Shown piece after piece: positions 30,287-37,641 of a stretch of DNA of 64,000 bases. Below the pieces are notes generated by a model. It was not told where the DNA came from. It did not search any database and saw only the letters and a program-made list of their open reading frames with translations. The DNA is from Patescibacteria group bacterium. Lineage in GTDB: Bacteria > Patescibacteriota > Patescibacteriia > UM-FILTER-42-10. The stretch spans positions 71,168-135,167 of the forward strand of contig JBAYKW010000001.1 in assembly GCA_041664365.1 (NCBI GenBank), written 5' to 3'. Numbering within the stretch: position 1 is the first letter of the stretch; the number at the start of each line of letters is the position of its first letter. A program made the position numbers and the translations under genes.

Positions 30287-30340
30287 TGGGGAGTAGCCAA
30301 GTGGTAAGGCAACGGGTTCTGGTCCCGTCACCGGGGGTTC
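30287..30340 (+). pseudogene. tRNA-Gln 5' fragment (positions 1-54, lacking the 3' half)
   Basis: 53/54 nt identical to 30667-30720. It is followed by unrelated GC-rich hairpins, not by the T-loop 3' half or the acceptor 3' strand. Confidence 0.6.
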
Positions 30341-30392
30341 TGCGCCCGAGGCGCACTCGCCTCCGGCGAGGAATCCTAAAATCTAAAACACA

Positions 30393-30662
30393 ATGTATTC
30401 AACCTATGTAATAAAAAGTATACATTTCCAAAGTAGGTACGTTGGCAGTACAGATAATGTTGAAAAAAGAGTAGAAGAACATAATAACGGCAAGTGTAGA
30501 TATACTAAGGGACGATCACCGTGGGTATTGATTTATAAAGAAGATTTTAATAGCAGATCTGAGGCAATGAAAAGAGAAAAGTTTTTGAAATCCGGTAAAG
30601 GTAGAAAATTGCTTGATGAAAAACTGAAAAAAATAGCAGATATCGAAAACAAAAATATTTAA
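30393..30662 (+). CDS. GIY-YIG (URI-domain) nuclease family small protein
   Basis: 89 aa. YVIKS (GIY), YVGST (YIG), RVEEHNNG and W/E/N motifs, as in COG2827/UPF0213 proteins. Confidence 0.8.
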   Translation: MYSTYVIKSIHFQSRYVGSTDNVEKRVEEHNNGKCRYTKGRSPWVLIYKEDFNSRSEAMKREKFLKSGKGRKLLDEKLKKIADIENKNI

Positions 30663-30666
30663 ACGA

Positions 30667-30740
30667 TGGGGAGTAGCCAAGCGGTAAGGCAACGGGTTCT
30701 GGTCCCGTCACCGGGGGTTCGAATCCCTCCTCCCCAGCCA
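30667..30740 (+). tRNA. tRNA-Gln (anticodon CTG)
   Basis: Manual cloverleaf fold. Acceptor TGGGGAG/CTCCCCA. D-arm GCC-AAGCGGTAA-GGC. Anticodon stem ACGGG/CCCGT with loop TTCTGGT. T-arm GGGGG-TTCGAAT-CCCTC. Discriminator G and encoded CCA. Confidence 0.85.
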
Positions 30741-30897: not shown

Positions 30898-30917
30898 GAA
30901 TCCCTCCTCCCCAACCA
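30898..30917 (+). repeat. Direct repeat of the tRNA-Gln 3' end (att-like)
   Basis: GAATCCCTCCTCCCCAACCA matches tRNA 30721-30740 (GAATCCCTCCTCCCCAGCCA) at 19/20 positions. It lies inside the high-GC island. Confidence 0.5.
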
Positions 30918-30990
30918 CGGGTCATCAGACCCTTCACCTGTCACAACCAAGCAAGCTTGGTTGTTTTAGGTTGCGGGTCTGTGCCCCTTT

Positions 30991-31040
30991 CCCCAACCCG
31001 CCAAGGGCGGGTCGGGGGCCCCATTTTTTGGTTTTATTTT
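30991..31040 (+). terminator. GC-rich intrinsic terminator inside the island
   Basis: CCCGCC-AAG-GGCGGG plus a GGGGGCCCC palindrome, followed by ATTTTTTGGTTTTATTTT. Confidence 0.45.
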
Positions 31041-31183
31041 CTGTCTCGGCGAAGATGAGCTCGGCTAGTCAAGCCAATGCCTTGCGCGCTCCTGTTGCGC
31101 TCAGGATAAATAATGAATAAAGATGTTTGTTTATAAATGGGATTTGAACGGATGTGCTAAGCAAGGACGTTCTGGCTATTATT

Positions 31184-31212
31184 GACATGCCAACCTACAT
31201 AATGTAAGTTGC
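31184..31212 (+). promoter_or_regulatory. Sigma70-type promoter of the Cys-rich gene
   Basis: TTGACA, 17-nt spacer, TAAGTT. Followed by RBS AAAGGGAGG 8 nt before the ATG. Confidence 0.45.
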
Positions 31213-31253
31213 ACACTGCGTAGCTCATCTTCAGTCTGAAAGGGAGGAAAAGC

Positions 31254-31763
31254 ATGAGCTTCAGTGACTTGATATTGCGGATGTACTGTCTTAGTCCATT
31301 CCGCTTCACGGCAACCAAGTGCGGTCATCGCACAAAGCGTACCGGAAAGTTGTCCGCGTTCGGACTCACTGTGATCTGCAGGAGCCCCATGAACACTGAC
31401 GGTTCGGTGGATTACTGTCATGACTGCCTTGGCAGTATGACCATCCAATGCGTGTGGTGCGGTGAACCGATTCTTGTCGGTGATCCGATTACGCTGTACA
31501 CGCCTGCGATTGCACTGTTTGCGCCGGTAGATGAATGGTGTATTCCCAAACATGCGGTCATCTACCGCAAAGAGCATCCTGTTCAACTCGTCGGTTGCCT
31601 CAGAATGAGTTGCGCCGATTCCAGCGCGGATCGAGCAGGGTTCTGGCTTCCGGGTGAAGACGGTAAAGGCCGTGTCCTGCGGGTACAAACTGCACTTGAA
31701 GCCATCCTTAACGCACCTGTATCGTCAATCATGCTGGTGCGCGACACGCACGACTTCGCTTGA
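31254..31763 (+). CDS. Cysteine-rich hypothetical protein (high-GC island cargo)
   Basis: 169 aa with 11 Cys, including CHDC...CVWC. Strong SD. About 56% GC. The antisense ORF 31179-31688 is judged spurious. Confidence 0.5.
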   Translation: MSFSDLILRMYCLSPFRFTATKCGHRTKRTGKLSAFGLTVICRSPMNTDGSVDYCHDCLGSMTIQCVWCGEPILVGDPITLYTPAIALFAPVDEWCIPKHAVIYRKEHPVQLVGCLRMSCADSSADRAGFWLPGEDGKGRVLRVQTALEAILNAPVSSIMLVRDTHDFA

Positions 31764-31923
31764 AGCGATGAATTTGACGTTCATTCCTCTCGATAACCAT
31801 CCGGCTAGGTAGCCACCAAATTCCGGTAGGTATGGCGGGCTGACATTTCATGATGTTAGCTCTTTTTATTGGAAAAATGACTGCATAATTAAACCCCTAT
31901 ACTTAGTTTTATATTTTTTTAAA

Positions 31924-32836: not shown

Positions 32837-33879
32837 CCAAAAAAAACCGAAAAGTAAGCGTTGCTTTTTTTGAGGTTGAGCAGTGGGAAAAAGAATATTT
32901 AGAAAAAAGATTAAAAGGATTTGAACTAATTTTTTTTGGTAAAACAGCGGACAAGGAAAGTCTGAACAGTATTCAGAATGTCAGCATCTTGTCTCCTTTT
33001 ATCTATTCTAAAATAAGCAAGGATATTCTATTAGCCCTACCTAACCTGAAATTAGTGGCGACCCGCTCTACCGGATTTGATCACATTGATCTGGTGTCGG
33101 CGCGCAAATTAAATATCAAAGTGGCGAATGTCCCGACGTACGGAGCGAATACGGTTGCGGAGCATACCTTCGCCTTAATCCTTTCGTTGAGCAGGAAAAT
33201 CCATCAGGCTTATGAGCGGACATCACGGGGAAATTTCAGCCTGGAGGGATTGCGCGGTTTTGACCTTAGAGATAAAACGATCGGTGTGGTCGGCGGGGGA
33301 AATATCGGACAGCATGTTGTGCGGATCGCGCAGGGGTTCAACATGAAAGTAATCGTATATGATGTTCACCGCGACCGGAAATTAGCAAAGAAAATGGGTT
33401 TTGAGTATGTGACGCTTAACCGGCTGATCAGTACATCAAATATTATTACCCTCCACGCGCCATATAACAAAAAAACCCATCACATGATCAATAGGCAGAA
33501 TATTAAGCTGGTAAAAGACGGGGCAATGATTATCAATACTGCCCGTGGAGGCCTGATTGATACTACGGCATTAATAGACGGGTTGCGCGACGGCAAGCTA
33601 GCCGGTATTGGATTAGATGTTTTGGAAGAAGAAAAATACATTCTGAAAGAAGAAGCGGAACTATTATCCCCGCACTTCATCAGTAAAAATCAGCAGAATA
33701 TAAAAGAAAATCTGGAGACAGTCGTGGAAGGACATATGCTACTCATGTCGGATAAAGTTGTAGTAACTCCGCACAATGCATTTAACAGCAAGGAGGCACT
33801 GGAAAGAATATTGGATACGACCATTGAAAATATTACTTCCTTCAGTAAGAAAATAAGGATGAAAAACTTAGTTAAATAG
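32833..33879 (+). CDS. D-isomer-specific 2-hydroxyacid dehydrogenase (NAD-binding)
   Basis: GVVGGGNIGQHV Rossmann motif. Catalytic R/E/H positions of the D-2-HDH family. Confidence 0.85.
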   Translation: MTKKNRKVSVAFFEVEQWEKEYLEKRLKGFELIFFGKTADKESLNSIQNVSILSPFIYSKISKDILLALPNLKLVATRSTGFDHIDLVSARKLNIKVANVPTYGANTVAEHTFALILSLSRKIHQAYERTSRGNFSLEGLRGFDLRDKTIGVVGGGNIGQHVVRIAQGFNMKVIVYDVHRDRKLAKKMGFEYVTLNRLISTSNIITLHAPYNKKTHHMINRQNIKLVKDGAMIINTARGGLIDTTALIDGLRDGKLAGIGLDVLEEEKYILKEEAELLSPHFISKNQQNIKENLETVVEGHMLLMSDKVVVTPHNAFNSKEALERILDTTIENITSFSKKIRMKNLVK

Positions 33880-33892
33880 CTTGAGCCAGTTC

Positions 33893-33923
33893 AAAAAAAC
33901 CGTCTGATTTAGACGGTTTTTTG
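33893..33923 (+). terminator. Intrinsic terminator
   Basis: A7-CCGTCT-GATTT-AGACGG-T6. Confidence 0.6.
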
Positions 33924-33954
33924 TTATTGATATTCTTGATATACTTATTATGTA

Positions 33955-34752
33955 ATGAAAAGAAAAGCACTAATTCTTGGCGCTACGGGATATTTAGGGT
34001 CGGAAGTTGTAAATAACGCTCCCGAAAATCTTGTTTTGTATTTTGGAAGTAGAGATGTGAGAATCGCAGGACATAATCAAGTAATGGTCGACCTGCTTGA
34101 TTATGATACCGTAAAAAAGGCGATTGCTGATATTGCTCCTGACATTATTATTCATTCGGCAAGATTAGGCGAATTTGATGATGATCCAGTAAAGGCCAAA
34201 GAGGTAACCGCGAACTTAGTCTCATCCATTAAATCAGTTAGCGCGAGATTGATTTATATGTCTTCAGACGCGGTGTTTGACGGAACAAAGGGAGAATATA
34301 AAGAAGACAGCAGGGGTAACCCCGTGACCGATTATGGCAGGGCAAAATTAGCAGCAGAAAATGTAATCAAATCTGAGATGGATAATTATACAATCATTCG
34401 TGCCGGGTATATTTATGGCGTTGGGGCGAAGGGGATGGACCGAAGATGTGAAAAAATACTCGCAGAAACGAAGGATGGAAAAAAAGTAAAAAGATTTAAC
34501 GACGTGTTTAGAACCCCGATCCATGTTACAAAATTGGCTAAGTTTATTTGGAAACTGGTGGGGTCGGATTTTAAAGGGATTATTCATGTTGGTGAAGAGA
34601 AGCAGAGCGTCTACCAGTTTAGCCAAAAGATTTTAAAAGATGCTGGTGCAGACAGTAGCCTGGTTGAATCTGATTCTGCAAGAGATAAGGGATTAAATAT
34701 CGCAATAGACACGTCTCTAAACACAAAGCTTTATCATACTTTAATAAAATAA
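33955..34752 (+). CDS. RmlD-like NAD(P)-dependent reductase (dTDP-4-dehydrorhamnose reductase family)
   Basis: GATGYLGS Rossmann motif. RmlD substrate-domain pattern SSDAVFDG...Y.E.D...P...YG..K..AE. Confidence 0.7.
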   Translation: MKRKALILGATGYLGSEVVNNAPENLVLYFGSRDVRIAGHNQVMVDLLDYDTVKKAIADIAPDIIIHSARLGEFDDDPVKAKEVTANLVSSIKSVSARLIYMSSDAVFDGTKGEYKEDSRGNPVTDYGRAKLAAENVIKSEMDNYTIIRAGYIYGVGAKGMDRRCEKILAETKDGKKVKRFNDVFRTPIHVTKLAKFIWKLVGSDFKGIIHVGEEKQSVYQFSQKILKDAGADSSLVESDSARDKGLNIAIDTSLNTKLYHTLIK

Positions 34753-34786
34753 AAACAGTCCCAGAGAGCGAAGGAACTGTTTTTTA
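34753..34786 (+). terminator. Intrinsic terminator
   Basis: AAACAGT-N16-ACTGTTT followed by TTTAG. Confidence 0.55.
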
Positions 34787-34863
34787 GTATTTATCTGTCA
34801 GTGGCGTGTTCTATGAGTATGTATAATTTGTTACATAACAATTTATATTGTGTTGTTTTGGTT

Positions 34864-34942
34864 AAATAAAAAAATGGACCGTTGAACTGAAGGCAGTTCT
34901 CGGGTCCCTTATCAGGAATGTGCGATAGCCGTATTAGACGGC
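34864..34942 (-). repeat. 3' module copy A: Rho-independent terminator plus stop-proximal hairpin, repeated after both island genes
   Basis: On the minus strand: GCCGTCTAATACGGC hairpin, then GGACC-CGA-GAACTG-CCTTC-CAGTTC-AAC-GGTCC, then ATTTTTTTATTT. Confidence 0.6.
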
Positions 34943-34946
34943 GCAG

Positions 34947-35270
34947 TTAGGGGTTATCTGGTGGGACGAGGATCATGTTGAGCGACATACCGAGCTTGCC
35001 GAGTTTCTCGATGAGATCGATCAATGTCCTTCTACCAAAGTTCCGGACCGACATGAGGTCTTCTTCGGTCGTGAGGACAAGATCGAGGATGGTGCGTATG
35101 TGGAGATCACGGCAGGCGTGCTTCATCCGTACAGAGGCATCTAATTCTGCCACTTTCATGCACACCACTTGGATGGGGATAACGACTGTGTTGCCATCCT
35201 GTGCGCGGAGTGGAATACACAGTTCACCCGATTGTCTCACGATCATGCCAACGGCTAGTAGCTTACTCAT
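34947..35270 (-). CDS. Free-standing RNA polymerase alpha-subunit C-terminal domain (alphaCTD) protein
   Basis: Start taken at MSKLLAVGM, with SD AGGAGGAGGTGA 4 nt upstream. The track start MEHRL lacks an RBS. The C-terminal 65 aa align in pattern with E. coli RpoA 250-315 (ELDASVRMKHACRDLHIRTILDLVLTTEEDLMSVRNFGRRTLIDLIEKLGKLGMSL vs [55 protein letters not shown]). About 60% GC. Confidence 0.65.
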   Translation of the reverse strand: MSKLLAVGMIVRQSGELCIPLRAQDGNTVVIPIQVVCMKVAELDASVRMKHACRDLHIRTILDLVLTTEEDLMSVRNFGRRTLIDLIEKLGKLGMSLNMILVPPDNP

Positions 35271-35361
35271 CTGTTCACCTCCTCCTATGGAGCAGTCTAA
35301 AGAGACACAAAGGCGATGCTCCATCGTAATTTAATGTTTCTAAATTGTCAAGCCCCGTTTG

Positions 35362-35440
35362 AAATAAAAAAATGGACCTTTGAACAGAAGCTGTTCGCAG
35401 GTCCTTCACGGGAATGAGCGGGTGGCCGTACTAGACGGCC
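35362..35440 (-). repeat. 3' module copy B (after pepT)
   Basis: About 80% identical to copy A. The inner stem is GAACAG/CTGTTC where A has GAACTG/CAGTTC, a compensatory double substitution preserving pairing. The pepT stop codon sits in the GGCCGTACTAGACGGCC hairpin. Confidence 0.6.
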
Positions 35441-36696
35441 TGGTACTCGGTGTACAGAGCGATGATGTGCTTCAGGATCAAGGCAGTACACTCGAGCTCA
35501 TCGACCACCAGGAATTCCTCCTTGCCATGGAGGTTGCGGGAGCCGTAGCCGATGTTGGGTGTGGCACAGGTGGGGTAGATCATGTTGAAGCCGGCGCCGT
35601 CCGTCCCGCCGCGGACGTTGTGATCGGAGGTGGTGACACCGTGGATAGCGTGTGCCGCGTAGATCGGCTGGAGCAGGTCGCGGTTGGCTTCGTTGATCGA
35701 GCGGTTGTTGATGCACACCGTCTCGTCCGACACGATCTTGAAGGTACAACCTTCGGCCCTGGCGCACTGCTGTGCGACCTGGACTGCGCGTCGCATCATC
35801 ACGTCCGTTTCCTTCTCGTCGAAGGAGCGGGGGACGATGAGCAGGCTGGCCTTGCCGGCGTCCATCTTAGCGTCCACGATGTAGAAGAACGGTGCCCTGC
35901 GGTCAGCGATGCCGGCGTACGGGTTGAGGAAGAGCTGTTCCATCTGCATGGCGAATGCCATCGCCGCGTAATGAGCGCGGTGGAGCTTGTGCGGGTAGAC
36001 GCCGGGGTGGGCGTCAGCGCCGTAGAACTCCATCTTCACCATCCGGCAGGCGAAACAGCCCAGGTCGATCTCGCCGACCGGACCTCCGTCCACGGTGAGC
36101 AGAACATCCCACGCACCGGCGATCTCCGGCGGGATGTTCTTCCCCTTGATGCGACCGATCTCCTCGTCGGTGCAGATCCACAAGTCGAGCGGTCCGTGCG
36201 AAAGTTGCTTGAGGAGCATGTTGCCAACTGCGTCAACGATGACGGCTAGACCACCCTTGTCGTCTGCACCGAGCAGACTGTCGCCGGAGCCGGTGATGAT
36301 GGTCTTGCCCTCCAGTCCCGTGAGGTCTTCGGCGGGGATCACGACATCACCCTTCGGCAGCACGATGCTCCCGCCCCGATAAGGGGGATGGATGATCGGA
36401 GTGACGGCGCCGGAAACGCCGGGGTAGGTGTCGACGTGTGCGGAAAGGCACAGGTACGGCTTGTCTTCGAGTCCTTTGGTCGCCGGGAAGCGAACGATGA
36501 GTTCACCTTCCGGCAGGTCCACGAACTGGCCATCGGCAGTGCCCAGCTCGAGCAGGCCGTCTTTCAAGAGGTGCATGACTTCAAGCTGTCCGGGGCTTGT
36601 CGGGAACTCCGTTGACTCGGCGTTCGAAGCTGAGTCCACGCCGACATAGCGCAGGAACAGTTCCGTGACCGGAGCGAGTGCGGTCGGTTGGTTCAT
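35431..36696 (-). CDS. pepT: Peptidase T (tripeptide aminopeptidase, M20B)
   Basis: Start at MNQPTAL with SD GGGAGG; the track start is TTG at 36711. Motif ELFLRYVGVDS as in PepT N-termini. HxD, GADDKGG and EEIG metal ligands. About 62% GC. Confidence 0.85.
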   Translation of the reverse strand: MNQPTALAPVTELFLRYVGVDSASNAESTEFPTSPGQLEVMHLLKDGLLELGTADGQFVDLPEGELIVRFPATKGLEDKPYLCLSAHVDTYPGVSGAVTPIIHPPYRGGSIVLPKGDVVIPAEDLTGLEGKTIITGSGDSLLGADDKGGLAVIVDAVGNMLLKQLSHGPLDLWICTDEEIGRIKGKNIPPEIAGAWDVLLTVDGGPVGEIDLGCFACRMVKMEFYGADAHPGVYPHKLHRAHYAAMAFAMQMEQLFLNPYAGIADRRAPFFYIVDAKMDAGKASLLIVPRSFDEKETDVMMRRAVQVAQQCARAEGCTFKIVSDETVCINNRSINEANRDLLQPIYAAHAIHGVTTSDHNVRGGTDGAGFNMIYPTCATPNIGYGSRNLHGKEEFLVVDELECTALILKHIIALYTEYQAV

Positions 36697-36858
36697 GCCG
36701 AAACCTCCCAAGAATCGGGTAATTGTCTACTGTACCCGGAAATTGGGCACAGTTTTGGTTTTTACCATATTATTTTGACTCTGGCAAGCTAGGGTAGTCA
36801 CATAGTGACTGCACTGACAAGTCGCCAGAAGCAGCAATATTTGATACAATAATCCGGT

Positions 36859-37641
36859 ATGAATAAGGAAACAAAGATAATAATCAAAGCAGTAGAAGCC
36901 GGCGGGGAAGTATTAAGGAAATATTTTGGCCAGGAGCTTAAAGTTGTTCAAAAGACACTTCCGGCTGATGTATACACAAAAGCGGATATTGAGTCGGAAG
37001 CAGCGATTTTAAGTATTGTTACCAAAGAATTACCAGGCTATAATATCTTTTCCGAAGAAACGGGAGAGATCAGGAGAAATTCCGAATATACATTAATTAT
37101 TGATCCCTTGGACGGGTCAAATAACTTTGTTCTGGGGATTCCCAATTTTTCTGCATCAATAGCCCTTTTAAAAAATGATGAAATAATAGCGTCTGCAATT
37201 TATGATCCGATTCAGAAAAAAACCTATCACGCGGAAAAGGGAAACGGCGCATTCTGCAATAAGAAAAAAATTGAAGTAAATAAAATTTCTGAATGGGAAA
37301 AATCAACTGTTGTTTATATAACCCATTATACTGTGAACCGCAGACCGCATAAGCTAATTATTGACCGGATTGAGAATAAGAAAGTAAAAAGAGTTTTGCG
37401 CAACTGGTCACCCTCACTGGATTTTTGCATGCTCGCTTCAGGAAAAATTGAAATTCTGATTAATAATTACAGCGAGATTTATGATCATATTGCCGGTAAA
37501 CTGATTGCCAGGGAAGCCGGGGCACGCATTACAGATTTTTCCGGAAAAGCTGAAAAAAATGACATGAATAGCATATTCATGGCCACTAACGGCACCAAAC
37601 TCCATGGCGAAACTGTAAAATTATCACTGACAAATAAATAA
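36859..37641 (+). CDS. Inositol monophosphatase / FBPase family protein
   Basis: IMPase motifs FSEETGE and IIDPLDGSNNF, and WSPSLD. Confidence 0.8.
   Translation: MNKETKIIIKAVEAGGEVLRKYFGQELKVVQKTLPADVYTKADIESEAAILSIVTKELPGYNIFSEETGEIRRNSEYTLIIDPLDGSNNFVLGIPNFSASIALLKNDEIIASAIYDPIQKKTYHAEKGNGAFCNKKKIEVNKISEWEKSTVVYITHYTVNRRPHKLIIDRIENKKVKRVLRNWSPSLDFCMLASGKIEILINNYSEIYDHIAGKLIAREAGARITDFSGKAEKNDMNSIFMATNGTKLHGETVKLSLTNK

Follow-up and report, generated by a model that had tools for sequence, protein, structure and literature searches.

The 64,000-nucleotide stretch of DNA analyzed here (hereafter, the window) comes from a metagenome-assembled genome (MAG) of the Patescibacteria with ~40% GC. 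It carries a short gene, referred to below as the alphaCTD gene, for a protein of 107 amino acids containing a single copy of the C-terminal domain of the RNA polymerase (RNAP) alpha subunit (alphaCTD). This gene is real, intact and self-contained. An earlier note, made from the letters alone, had marked an open reading frame (ORF) of 107 amino acids at 34947-35270 with a strong Shine-Dalgarno (SD) sequence, a TTGACA-N17-TACGAT promoter and a terminator of its own; the ORF was borne out, on the minus strand, and all three signals were located (Table 1). As judged from sequence matches and from a structural model, residues ~34-98 are a true alphaCTD, with a match far beyond chance. The reading that we favor, with slightly more confidence than doubt, is that of an intact, independently transcribed single-alphaCTD protein, which would be an untethered binder of A/T-rich DNA and/or of alphaCTD partners and would either compete with the alphaCTDs of RNAP or play an accessory part.

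Table 1. Features of the alphaCTD gene, its product and the adjoining pepT locus (positions in the window)
Feature	Position	Strand	Description
alphaCTD-protein ORF	34947..35270 (35270..34947)	minus	107 aa, MSKLLAVG...VPPDNP; ATG at 35270, TAA stop; NCBI MFA6391225.1
N-terminal extension, residues 1-33	35172..35270	minus	No detectable homologue; predicted beta-hairpin, strands 17-22 and 28-32
alphaCTD (helix-hairpin-helix), residues 34-98	34977..35171	minus	PF03118, NCBIfam, PDB sequence matches, Foldseek
C-terminal tail NMILVPPDN-P, residues 99-107	34950..34976	minus	Resembles the 'GM.L..WPP' tail of some alphaCTDs (alignment A2)
SD AGGAGGAGGTGA	35275..35286 (35286..35275)	minus	4 nt 5' of the ATG; read from the sequence
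Sigma-70-type promoter TTGACA-17-TACGAT	35323..35351 (35351..35323)	minus	Directly after the T-run of the pepT terminator; 10/12 consensus matches
Distal copy of the ~86-nt 3' module	34862..34947	minus	Hairpin GCCGT-CTAAT-ACGGC and terminator GGACC..GGTCC-U7 (34907..34868); ends the alphaCTD gene
Proximal copy of the ~86-nt 3' module	35359..35444	minus	Terminator 35404..35366; overlaps the pepT stop codon; ends pepT
pepT-like M20 peptidase	35431..36696	minus	421 aa (NCBI), GC 0.62, GC3 0.81; upstream neighbour, same strand

Sequence and predicted structure of the alphaCTD

The assignment of the C-terminal ~65 residues to the alphaCTD, proposed in the earlier note, was confirmed by several searches. 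Pfam family PF03118 (RNA_pol_A_CTD), the only Pfam domain in the protein, matched residues 38-91 over profile positions 13-66/67 with E = 3.4e-12 and 46.3 bits, above the gathering threshold of 23.8. In a sequence search of the PDB, residues ~35-98 were matched by 41 RpoA chains, the best of them Firmicute alphaCTDs (E = 2.7e-10, residues 35-97). The NCBIfam rpoA models all matched by their last ~65 positions only and far under their cut-offs; the rpoA match reached 47.8 bits against a cut-off of 227.8, over model positions 232-297 of 298. An AlphaFold2 model built on an alignment of 40 sequences (A2) had a predicted local distance difference test (pLDDT) score of 92 and a predicted template modeling score of 0.81, and when it was compared with the PDB by Foldseek the top 50 matches were all RpoA alphaCTDs (best E = 2e-5; root-mean-square deviation (rmsd) 0.8-1.2 Å over 64-67 residues). 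Among these top matches were the C. crescentus alphaCTD on AT-rich DNA and the E. coli alphaCTD-CAP-DNA complex. Hence, the compact four-helix, helix-hairpin-helix fold of the alphaCTD was predicted with high confidence.

The near-invariant positions of the family, L43, S46, R48, L72, N77, G79, L90 and G94, were retained in the alignment. Residues R265, N268, N294, G296, K298, S299 and E302 of the E. coli protein, which we take to be the minor-groove DNA-binding determinant, were also traced by alignment. R265, N294 and G296 have identical counterparts (R48, N77 and G79), K298, S299 and E302 are conservatively replaced (by R81, T82 and D85, respectively), and N268 is changed to H51. Read from the sequence, most of the residues that contact the minor groove are retained. 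The earlier note had recognized a contact surface by the motifs VRxxN and FGxK(R)SL; at these places the protein has VRMKH and FGRRTL.

Relationship to rpoA

The earlier note had described the domain as lacking the N-terminal domain of the alpha subunit (alphaNTD), and a tblastn search with full-length RpoA bore this out: no alphaNTD sequence was found upstream of the gene or anywhere in the 64-kb window, which was matched only at 35243..34980 (RpoA residues 217-311), that is, by the CTD alone. An alphaNTD remnant upstream would have marked the ORF as a pseudogene; none was found, and the 160 nt 5' of the ORF are taken up by the pepT terminator and the promoter, with stops in every frame. Furthermore, no homologues of the ribosomal proteins S11, S4 and L17 were detected in the window and there is no rpoA cluster there, the neighbours of the gene being pepT and an RmlD-like epimerase gene, not rpsK-rpsD-rpoA-rplQ. 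On this reading of the sequence, the 107-amino-acid ORF is not a simple in-place remnant of rpoA.

Expression signals

The alphaCTD gene is probably expressed, judging from the signals that surround it. Its terminator folds with z = -3.05 and was missed by a consensus terminator scan because of its long interior. The structure of the 5' untranslated region was not unusual (z = +1.15), so the SD should be accessible. A promoter scan of the 2.5-kb region returned six promoter-like sites, against 1.4 expected from shuffled sequences. The start-site calls differ: NCBI gives the protein 107 amino acids, whereas JGI gives it 125, from an ATG at 35324 that lies inside the -10 box and has no SD. In NCBI the product already bears the name 'DNA-directed RNA polymerase subunit alpha C-terminal domain-containing protein'. 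An antisense ORF (34975-35334, plus strand) had no Pfam match and was taken as a shadow of the minus-strand gene.

The N-terminal extension and the C-terminal tail

The N-terminal ~40 amino acids had been likened in the earlier note to the interdomain linker of RpoA, a comparison that did not hold. Residues 1-33 had no Pfam match even at E <= 10, the phmmer alignments to 149 relatives began at residues 34-40, and no profile alignment to RpoA extended into the N-terminal region. BLASTP against one Firmicute RpoA (from record L009) reached residue 17, and a shuffle test, made post hoc against the 50 residues before that Firmicute CTD, gave p = 0.002; the same test against four other RpoAs gave p = 0.42-0.99, which is not above chance. 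A beta-hairpin was predicted instead, with pLDDT values of 92-96 for residues 11-40 when the alignment was supplied; a single-sequence AlphaFold2 run placed the same strands (~17-22 and ~28-32) in a poor model (pLDDT 47). In these models residues 1-33 look like a private structured extension, and they are not convincingly an RpoA linker. An origin from an AbrB/SpoVT-like swapped hairpin, considered because of a resemblance to 'G.L.IP', was discarded with no Pfam match at E <= 10. At the other end of the protein, a short strand was predicted by AlphaFold2 at residues ~100-101 of the tail; for comparison, protein P0092, one of the multi-alphaCTD proteins described below, ends ...SLNMILVGWDHD.

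Homologues and other untethered alphaCTDs

No close homologue of the protein was found in ~15 billion proteins. A word-indexed search of 5.8 billion clusters returned only the 107-amino-acid protein itself, and HMMER against 1.84 billion representatives returned only itself below 1e-30, with 1825 domain-level matches. Pattern and tblastn scans of IMG/VR, of the GTDB representative genomes and of JGI metagenome contigs gave no relatives. A DNA scan of the metagenome_contigs collection with the conserved 3' end of the terminator gave 0 matches, the source metagenome of the related genome L002 (see below) evidently lying outside that collection. PHROGs and PADLOC yielded no match, and Rfam detected tRNA only.

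At the domain level, multi-alphaCTD proteins scored best as relatives, ahead of the RpoAs, with 35-44% identity per domain. They comprise proteins of ~440 amino acids with tetratricopeptide repeats (TPR) and two alphaCTDs (P0007, P0071 and P0086), proteins of 177-178 amino acids made of two alphaCTDs only (P0037 and P0048), proteins with two alphaCTDs and sigma-70 region 4 (P0111, from an Omnitrophota MAG, P0092 and P0125), proteins in which a hydrophobic N-terminus precedes 4 to 10-11 alphaCTDs in tandem (P0006 and P0002), and a protein that is named RpoA and carries a tandem pair of alphaCTDs (P0041). P0013 also belongs to this large and apparently unstudied set of non-RpoA alphaCTD-repeat proteins.

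The earlier note had also proposed a search for stand-alone alphaCTD genes in phages and plasmids, and its outcome was divided. A structure search of viral proteins found several proteins of 105-135 amino acids from uncultured tailed phages named 'RNA polymerase, alpha subunit, C-terminal', as well as proteins of mycobacteriophage and Rhodococcus phage origin. The tblastn matches in the phage and plasmid collections were ordinary rpoA genes in S11-S4-rpoA-L17 clusters, not stand-alone genes. Several of these 'phage' and 'plasmid' records (MT835508.1, which is L009, NZ_CP054613.1, NZ_CP154629.1 and others) look like bacterial chromosomal sequence, some of the 'plasmids' being 2.6-5.5 Mb long. 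A literature search found no paper on the function of any stand-alone alphaCTD protein. The 107-amino-acid protein is thus a singleton of a known, uncharacterized and already annotated class of non-RpoA alphaCTD proteins.

Genomic setting and comparison with a related genome

The segment with the alphaCTD gene is internal to a contig of 392 kb. The GC content of the gene is 0.515 and its GC content at third codon positions (GC3) is 0.62, as compared with a GC3 of 0.81 in pepT and of 0.35-0.46 in the neighbouring host genes. An independent Logan assembly of SRR6484324 was 100% identical over 33693-36773 and spanned the junction with the low-GC epimerase gene.

The locus was compared with that of a related genome, L002, a JGI contig of 1.18 Mb (with L003-L006, five contigs from several samples). 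The order of genes in L002 is DnaX ... rubrerythrin, an ORF of 81/83 amino acids, 2-hydroxyacid dehydrogenase, a variable slot, pepT, inositol monophosphatase and EamA. Proteins of the window and of L002 are 82-92% identical, and PepT is 75% identical. The pepT gene of L002 is equally GC-rich (0.62, with flanks of 0.39) and occupies the same syntenic position. The slot between the 2-hydroxyacid dehydrogenase gene and pepT (33955-35430 in the window, 11428-13421 in L002) holds the RmlD-like epimerase gene (plus strand) and the alphaCTD gene (minus strand) in the window; in L002 it holds a gene for an extracytoplasmic function (ECF) sigma factor and one for a protein of 475 amino acids with no Pfam match, possibly the anti-sigma factor of the former. 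Neither the epimerase nor the alphaCTD had a tblastx match in the 21-kb L002 locus, and the more distant pepT homologues in L007, L008 and L010 have no alphaCTD neighbour. As an observation in its own right, a transcription-related gene lies directly downstream of pepT in both the window and L002.

Since L002 has a high-GC pepT in the same slot, the pepT 'island' was already present before the two genomes separated, and the alphaCTD gene is a lineage-specific extra. The earlier note had placed the gene on a horizontally acquired high-GC island next to pepT; the anomalous composition stands, but a recent private island does not, given the L002 pepT in the same slot with 75% amino acid identity.

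The terminator module and the cassette

The alphaCTD gene is enclosed by the two copies of a 3' module of ~86 nt (Table 1), built of a small hairpin over the pepT stop and an intrinsic terminator with U7, with a spacer between them. With nhmmer these were the only two places in the 64 kb at which the module was found; L002 has a single copy, immediately behind pepT. Between the two copies in the window lie ~410 bp of unique DNA, which consist of the promoter, the 5' untranslated region, the SD and the ORF. These two copies share 74.7% identity with each other, and 75.6% and 78.6% with the copy in L002; the flanking orthologous genes of the window and L002 have 75-83% nucleotide identity. These values fit either a duplication and a cassette that date back approximately to the split between the window and L002, with L002 having lost the cassette or never received it, or the arrival of the cassette with a homologous terminator. 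If the duplication were old, an ORF still open and with intact signals would be indirect evidence for selection, not proof. An integron gene cassette with an attC site was considered and rejected: the module is an intrinsic terminator with U7, present twice in the 64 kb and once in L002, the gene has its own promoter, and no integrase was seen among the neighbours.

Other features of the locus

The pepT-like peptidase gene was found to be persistently GC-rich in low-GC genomes of the Patescibacteria type (35431-36696 in the window; L002 10001-11257; L007 4001-5287; L010 6001-7230). The L007 homologue, with 45% identity and in a different neighbourhood, has a GC content of 0.61 between flanks of 0.31-0.38, and that of L010, with 39% identity, has 0.675 and flanks of 0.43; the L008 homologue alone is modest (0.535 against 0.45-0.46). 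Although the orthologs of the window and of L002 have diverged by ~21% in nucleotide sequence, no amelioration of the pepT GC content was seen, which raises the question of repeated high-GC transfer or a gene-specific constraint. On the other side of pepT lies an inositol monophosphatase gene of the SuhB family (36859-37641). SuhB of E. coli belongs to the rRNA antitermination complex and binds NusA-AR2, with which the alphaCTD also makes contact (PMC6614801). This proximity is probably a coincidence, because the gene is kept beside pepT in L002, which has no alphaCTD gene.

Elsewhere in the window (30287-30740), the initial 54 nt of tRNA-Gln(CTG) (30667-30720) recur at 30287-30340 with 98% identity, and the two copies enclose a stand-alone GIY-YIG ORF of 89 amino acids (30393-30662, Pfam E = 6.8e-16). 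In L002 there is one tRNA-Gln region, and the arrangement in the window has the appearance of a GIY-YIG insertion in which the target was partly duplicated. A further repeat, at 30898-30917, is that of the 20-nt 3' end of tRNA-Gln; after it comes a second patch of foreign composition, with ~54% GC (30898-31800). This patch holds a Cys-rich ORF of 169 amino acids (31254-31763, GC3 0.58) that belongs to no Pfam family, is absent from L002 and resembles the alphaCTD gene in composition.

Discussion

From the sequence and the analysis of the domain, the most likely ligands of the 107-amino-acid protein are A/T-rich, UP-element-like DNA and/or proteins that dock on the alphaCTD, because most of the minor-groove determinant is retained. 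As the protein has no alphaNTD, the known route into the RNAP core would be closed to it, following established alphaCTD biology. A free alphaCTD of this kind would occupy A/T-rich UP-like DNA and/or alphaCTD-docking proteins and, being untethered, might compete with RNAP's own alphaCTDs and dampen promoters that depend on UP elements or activators; alternatively, its net effect could be that of a small accessory DNA-binding protein. The N-terminal hairpin and the C-terminal strand may provide self-association or contact with a partner.

Several points weigh against this proposal. No collection searched contains a whole-protein homologue by which purifying selection could be gauged, and L002, the nearest relative, lacks the gene; for such a singleton, seen in one MAG and missing from this relative, the biological weight may be small. 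Three otherwise well-conserved positions are altered (N268 to H, the G of 'GDLV' to L62, and 'LDLS' to LDAS), and the Pfam score of 46 bits compares with ~65 bits per domain in other alphaCTD proteins. The affinity of an isolated alphaCTD for DNA is low, and the effect of a monomer may therefore be small. Additionally, the high confidence in the hairpin comes from an alignment with almost no sequences in the N-terminal region.

One alternative is a neutral passenger. The ORF would then be the captured 3' fragment of a foreign rpoA (the last NTD helix, linker and CTD), with promoter- and SD-like sequences present by chance, functionless and still undecayed. The lack of homologues and the absence from L002 would agree with such an origin, as would the foreign composition (GC3 0.62), the domain score below the typical one and the collinearity of residues 9-34 with the helix and linker before the CTD of one Firmicute RpoA (the post hoc p = 0.002). 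We regard it as rather unlikely, since a random rpoA fragment would not bring a near-perfect, well-spaced SD, a 10/12 promoter and an intact terminator, no NTD remnant accompanies the domain, the linker similarity fails for four other RpoAs, and the family core and most of the DNA-contact residues are intact. Moreover, if the duplication of the module (~25% divergence) dates the cassette, an unselected ORF of 324 nt would probably have acquired stops or frameshifts. The anomalous segment could also be foreign to the low-GC genome through a chimera of assembly or binning, as the abrupt GC shifts at both of its edges might suggest; this is very improbable, given that an independent assembler yields the identical junction with the low-GC epimerase gene, that in L002 the high-GC pepT is flanked by the same low-GC genes and that the segment is internal to the 392-kb contig.

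Two further explanations were considered. It might be a decoy against phage or mobile-element factors that target the alphaCTD (ADP-ribosyltransferases, alphaCTD-binding regulators), or itself a 'moron'-type cassette left behind by such an element. Its promoter-ORF-terminator architecture is moron-like, small alphaCTD-only proteins occur in phages and the genome slot is variable; against this, the surroundings are free of phage, integrase and defence genes, searches with PADLOC and PHROGs came back empty, IMG/VR holds no relatives and the phage proteins are 19-32% identical over the domain only, and we hold it to be improbable. The protein might instead be a trans-acting accessory of RNAP, its hairpin docking the free alphaCTD on RNAP or on a sigma factor or regulator, either as an extra or alternative alphaCTD or as the complement of a CTD-less RpoA (a split alpha). 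The structured extension predicted beside the domain would suit this role; the '261 determinant' of E. coli keeps its acidic residues here (D259 as E42, E261 as D44), and fusions of alphaCTDs with sigma region 4 or TPR occur in other lineages. The proposed docking partner has no evidence behind it, the foreign composition speaks against the split of a native rpoA, and the protein cannot be an essential part of RNAP because the gene is missing from the closest relative; this role seems quite improbable to us.

Beyond the untethered binder favored above, we suggest, as a doubtful and tentative extension, that a free alphaCTD with a private beta-hairpin handle might serve a Patescibacteria cell, poor in regulators, as a dedicated regulator acting in trans. 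Its mode of action could be that of a global anti-activator at UP-like A/T tracts or on alphaCTD partners, of a non-covalent extra alphaCTD on RNAP, or of a decoy for alphaCTD-targeting phage factors. If this is true, it would give the large, unstudied class of non-RpoA alphaCTD proteins its first assigned function.

The alphaCTD is among the best-studied regulatory surfaces in bacterial transcription, and the 107-amino-acid protein is close to the simplest untethered form of it, with one domain, a short handle and clear expression signals, which makes it a convenient test case. There is also a practical side: PF03118 is included in sets of single-copy phylogenomic markers (PMC3663571), and stand-alone copies would therefore count as marker duplications in estimates of completeness and contamination.

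Comparison with known systems

As a genetic element, the alphaCTD cassette is similar to a phage 'moron' in its compact arrangement of promoter, ORF and terminator, its insertion between transcription units and its absence from a close relative. Unlike a moron, it lies outside any prophage and is flanked by a duplicated ~86-nt terminator module of the host locus, not by phage genes.

The small alphaCTD-only proteins of phages (BFVD/UniProt A0A6J5NZM6, 111 amino acids; A0A6J5L490, 131; A0A6J5M7I6, 135; and that of Mycobacterium phage Mithril, 149) are alike in size, in having a single alphaCTD fold (rmsd 1.1-1.6 Å over 60-65 residues), in lacking an NTD and in being uncharacterized. They differ in their low identity to the 107-amino-acid protein, which has no PHROG match and no IMG/VR relative, and whose neighbours are chromosomal and syntenic with L002.

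With the alphaCTD of RpoA (for example PDB 1LB2, 3K4G, 1Z3E and 9ZUM) the protein shares the fold (rmsd ~1 Å over 64-67 residues, 30-44% identity), the Arg equivalent to R265, the N-x-G hairpin, most of the minor-groove contacts as judged by alignment and a tail of the 'GM.L..PP' type. Unlike RpoA (TIGR02027 / PRK05182), it has neither the alphaNTD (RNA_pol_L / RNA_pol_A_bac), which serves dimerisation and assembly, nor the flexible linker, is untethered and carries a predicted beta-hairpin of 33 amino acids; its gene lies outside the S11-S4-rpoA-L17 cluster, and besides the change of N268 to H the residues of the Spx-contact type are not retained (VRMKH against VRSYN).

Finally, the multi-alphaCTD proteins share with the 107-amino-acid protein the 'RNFG' variant of the hairpin. 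They have at least two alphaCTDs, usually with other domains, whereas the protein described here has one alphaCTD and an unrelated N-terminal hairpin. Since alphaCTDs occur fused to TPR and to sigma region 4, the domain has been reused as a portable module outside RpoA.

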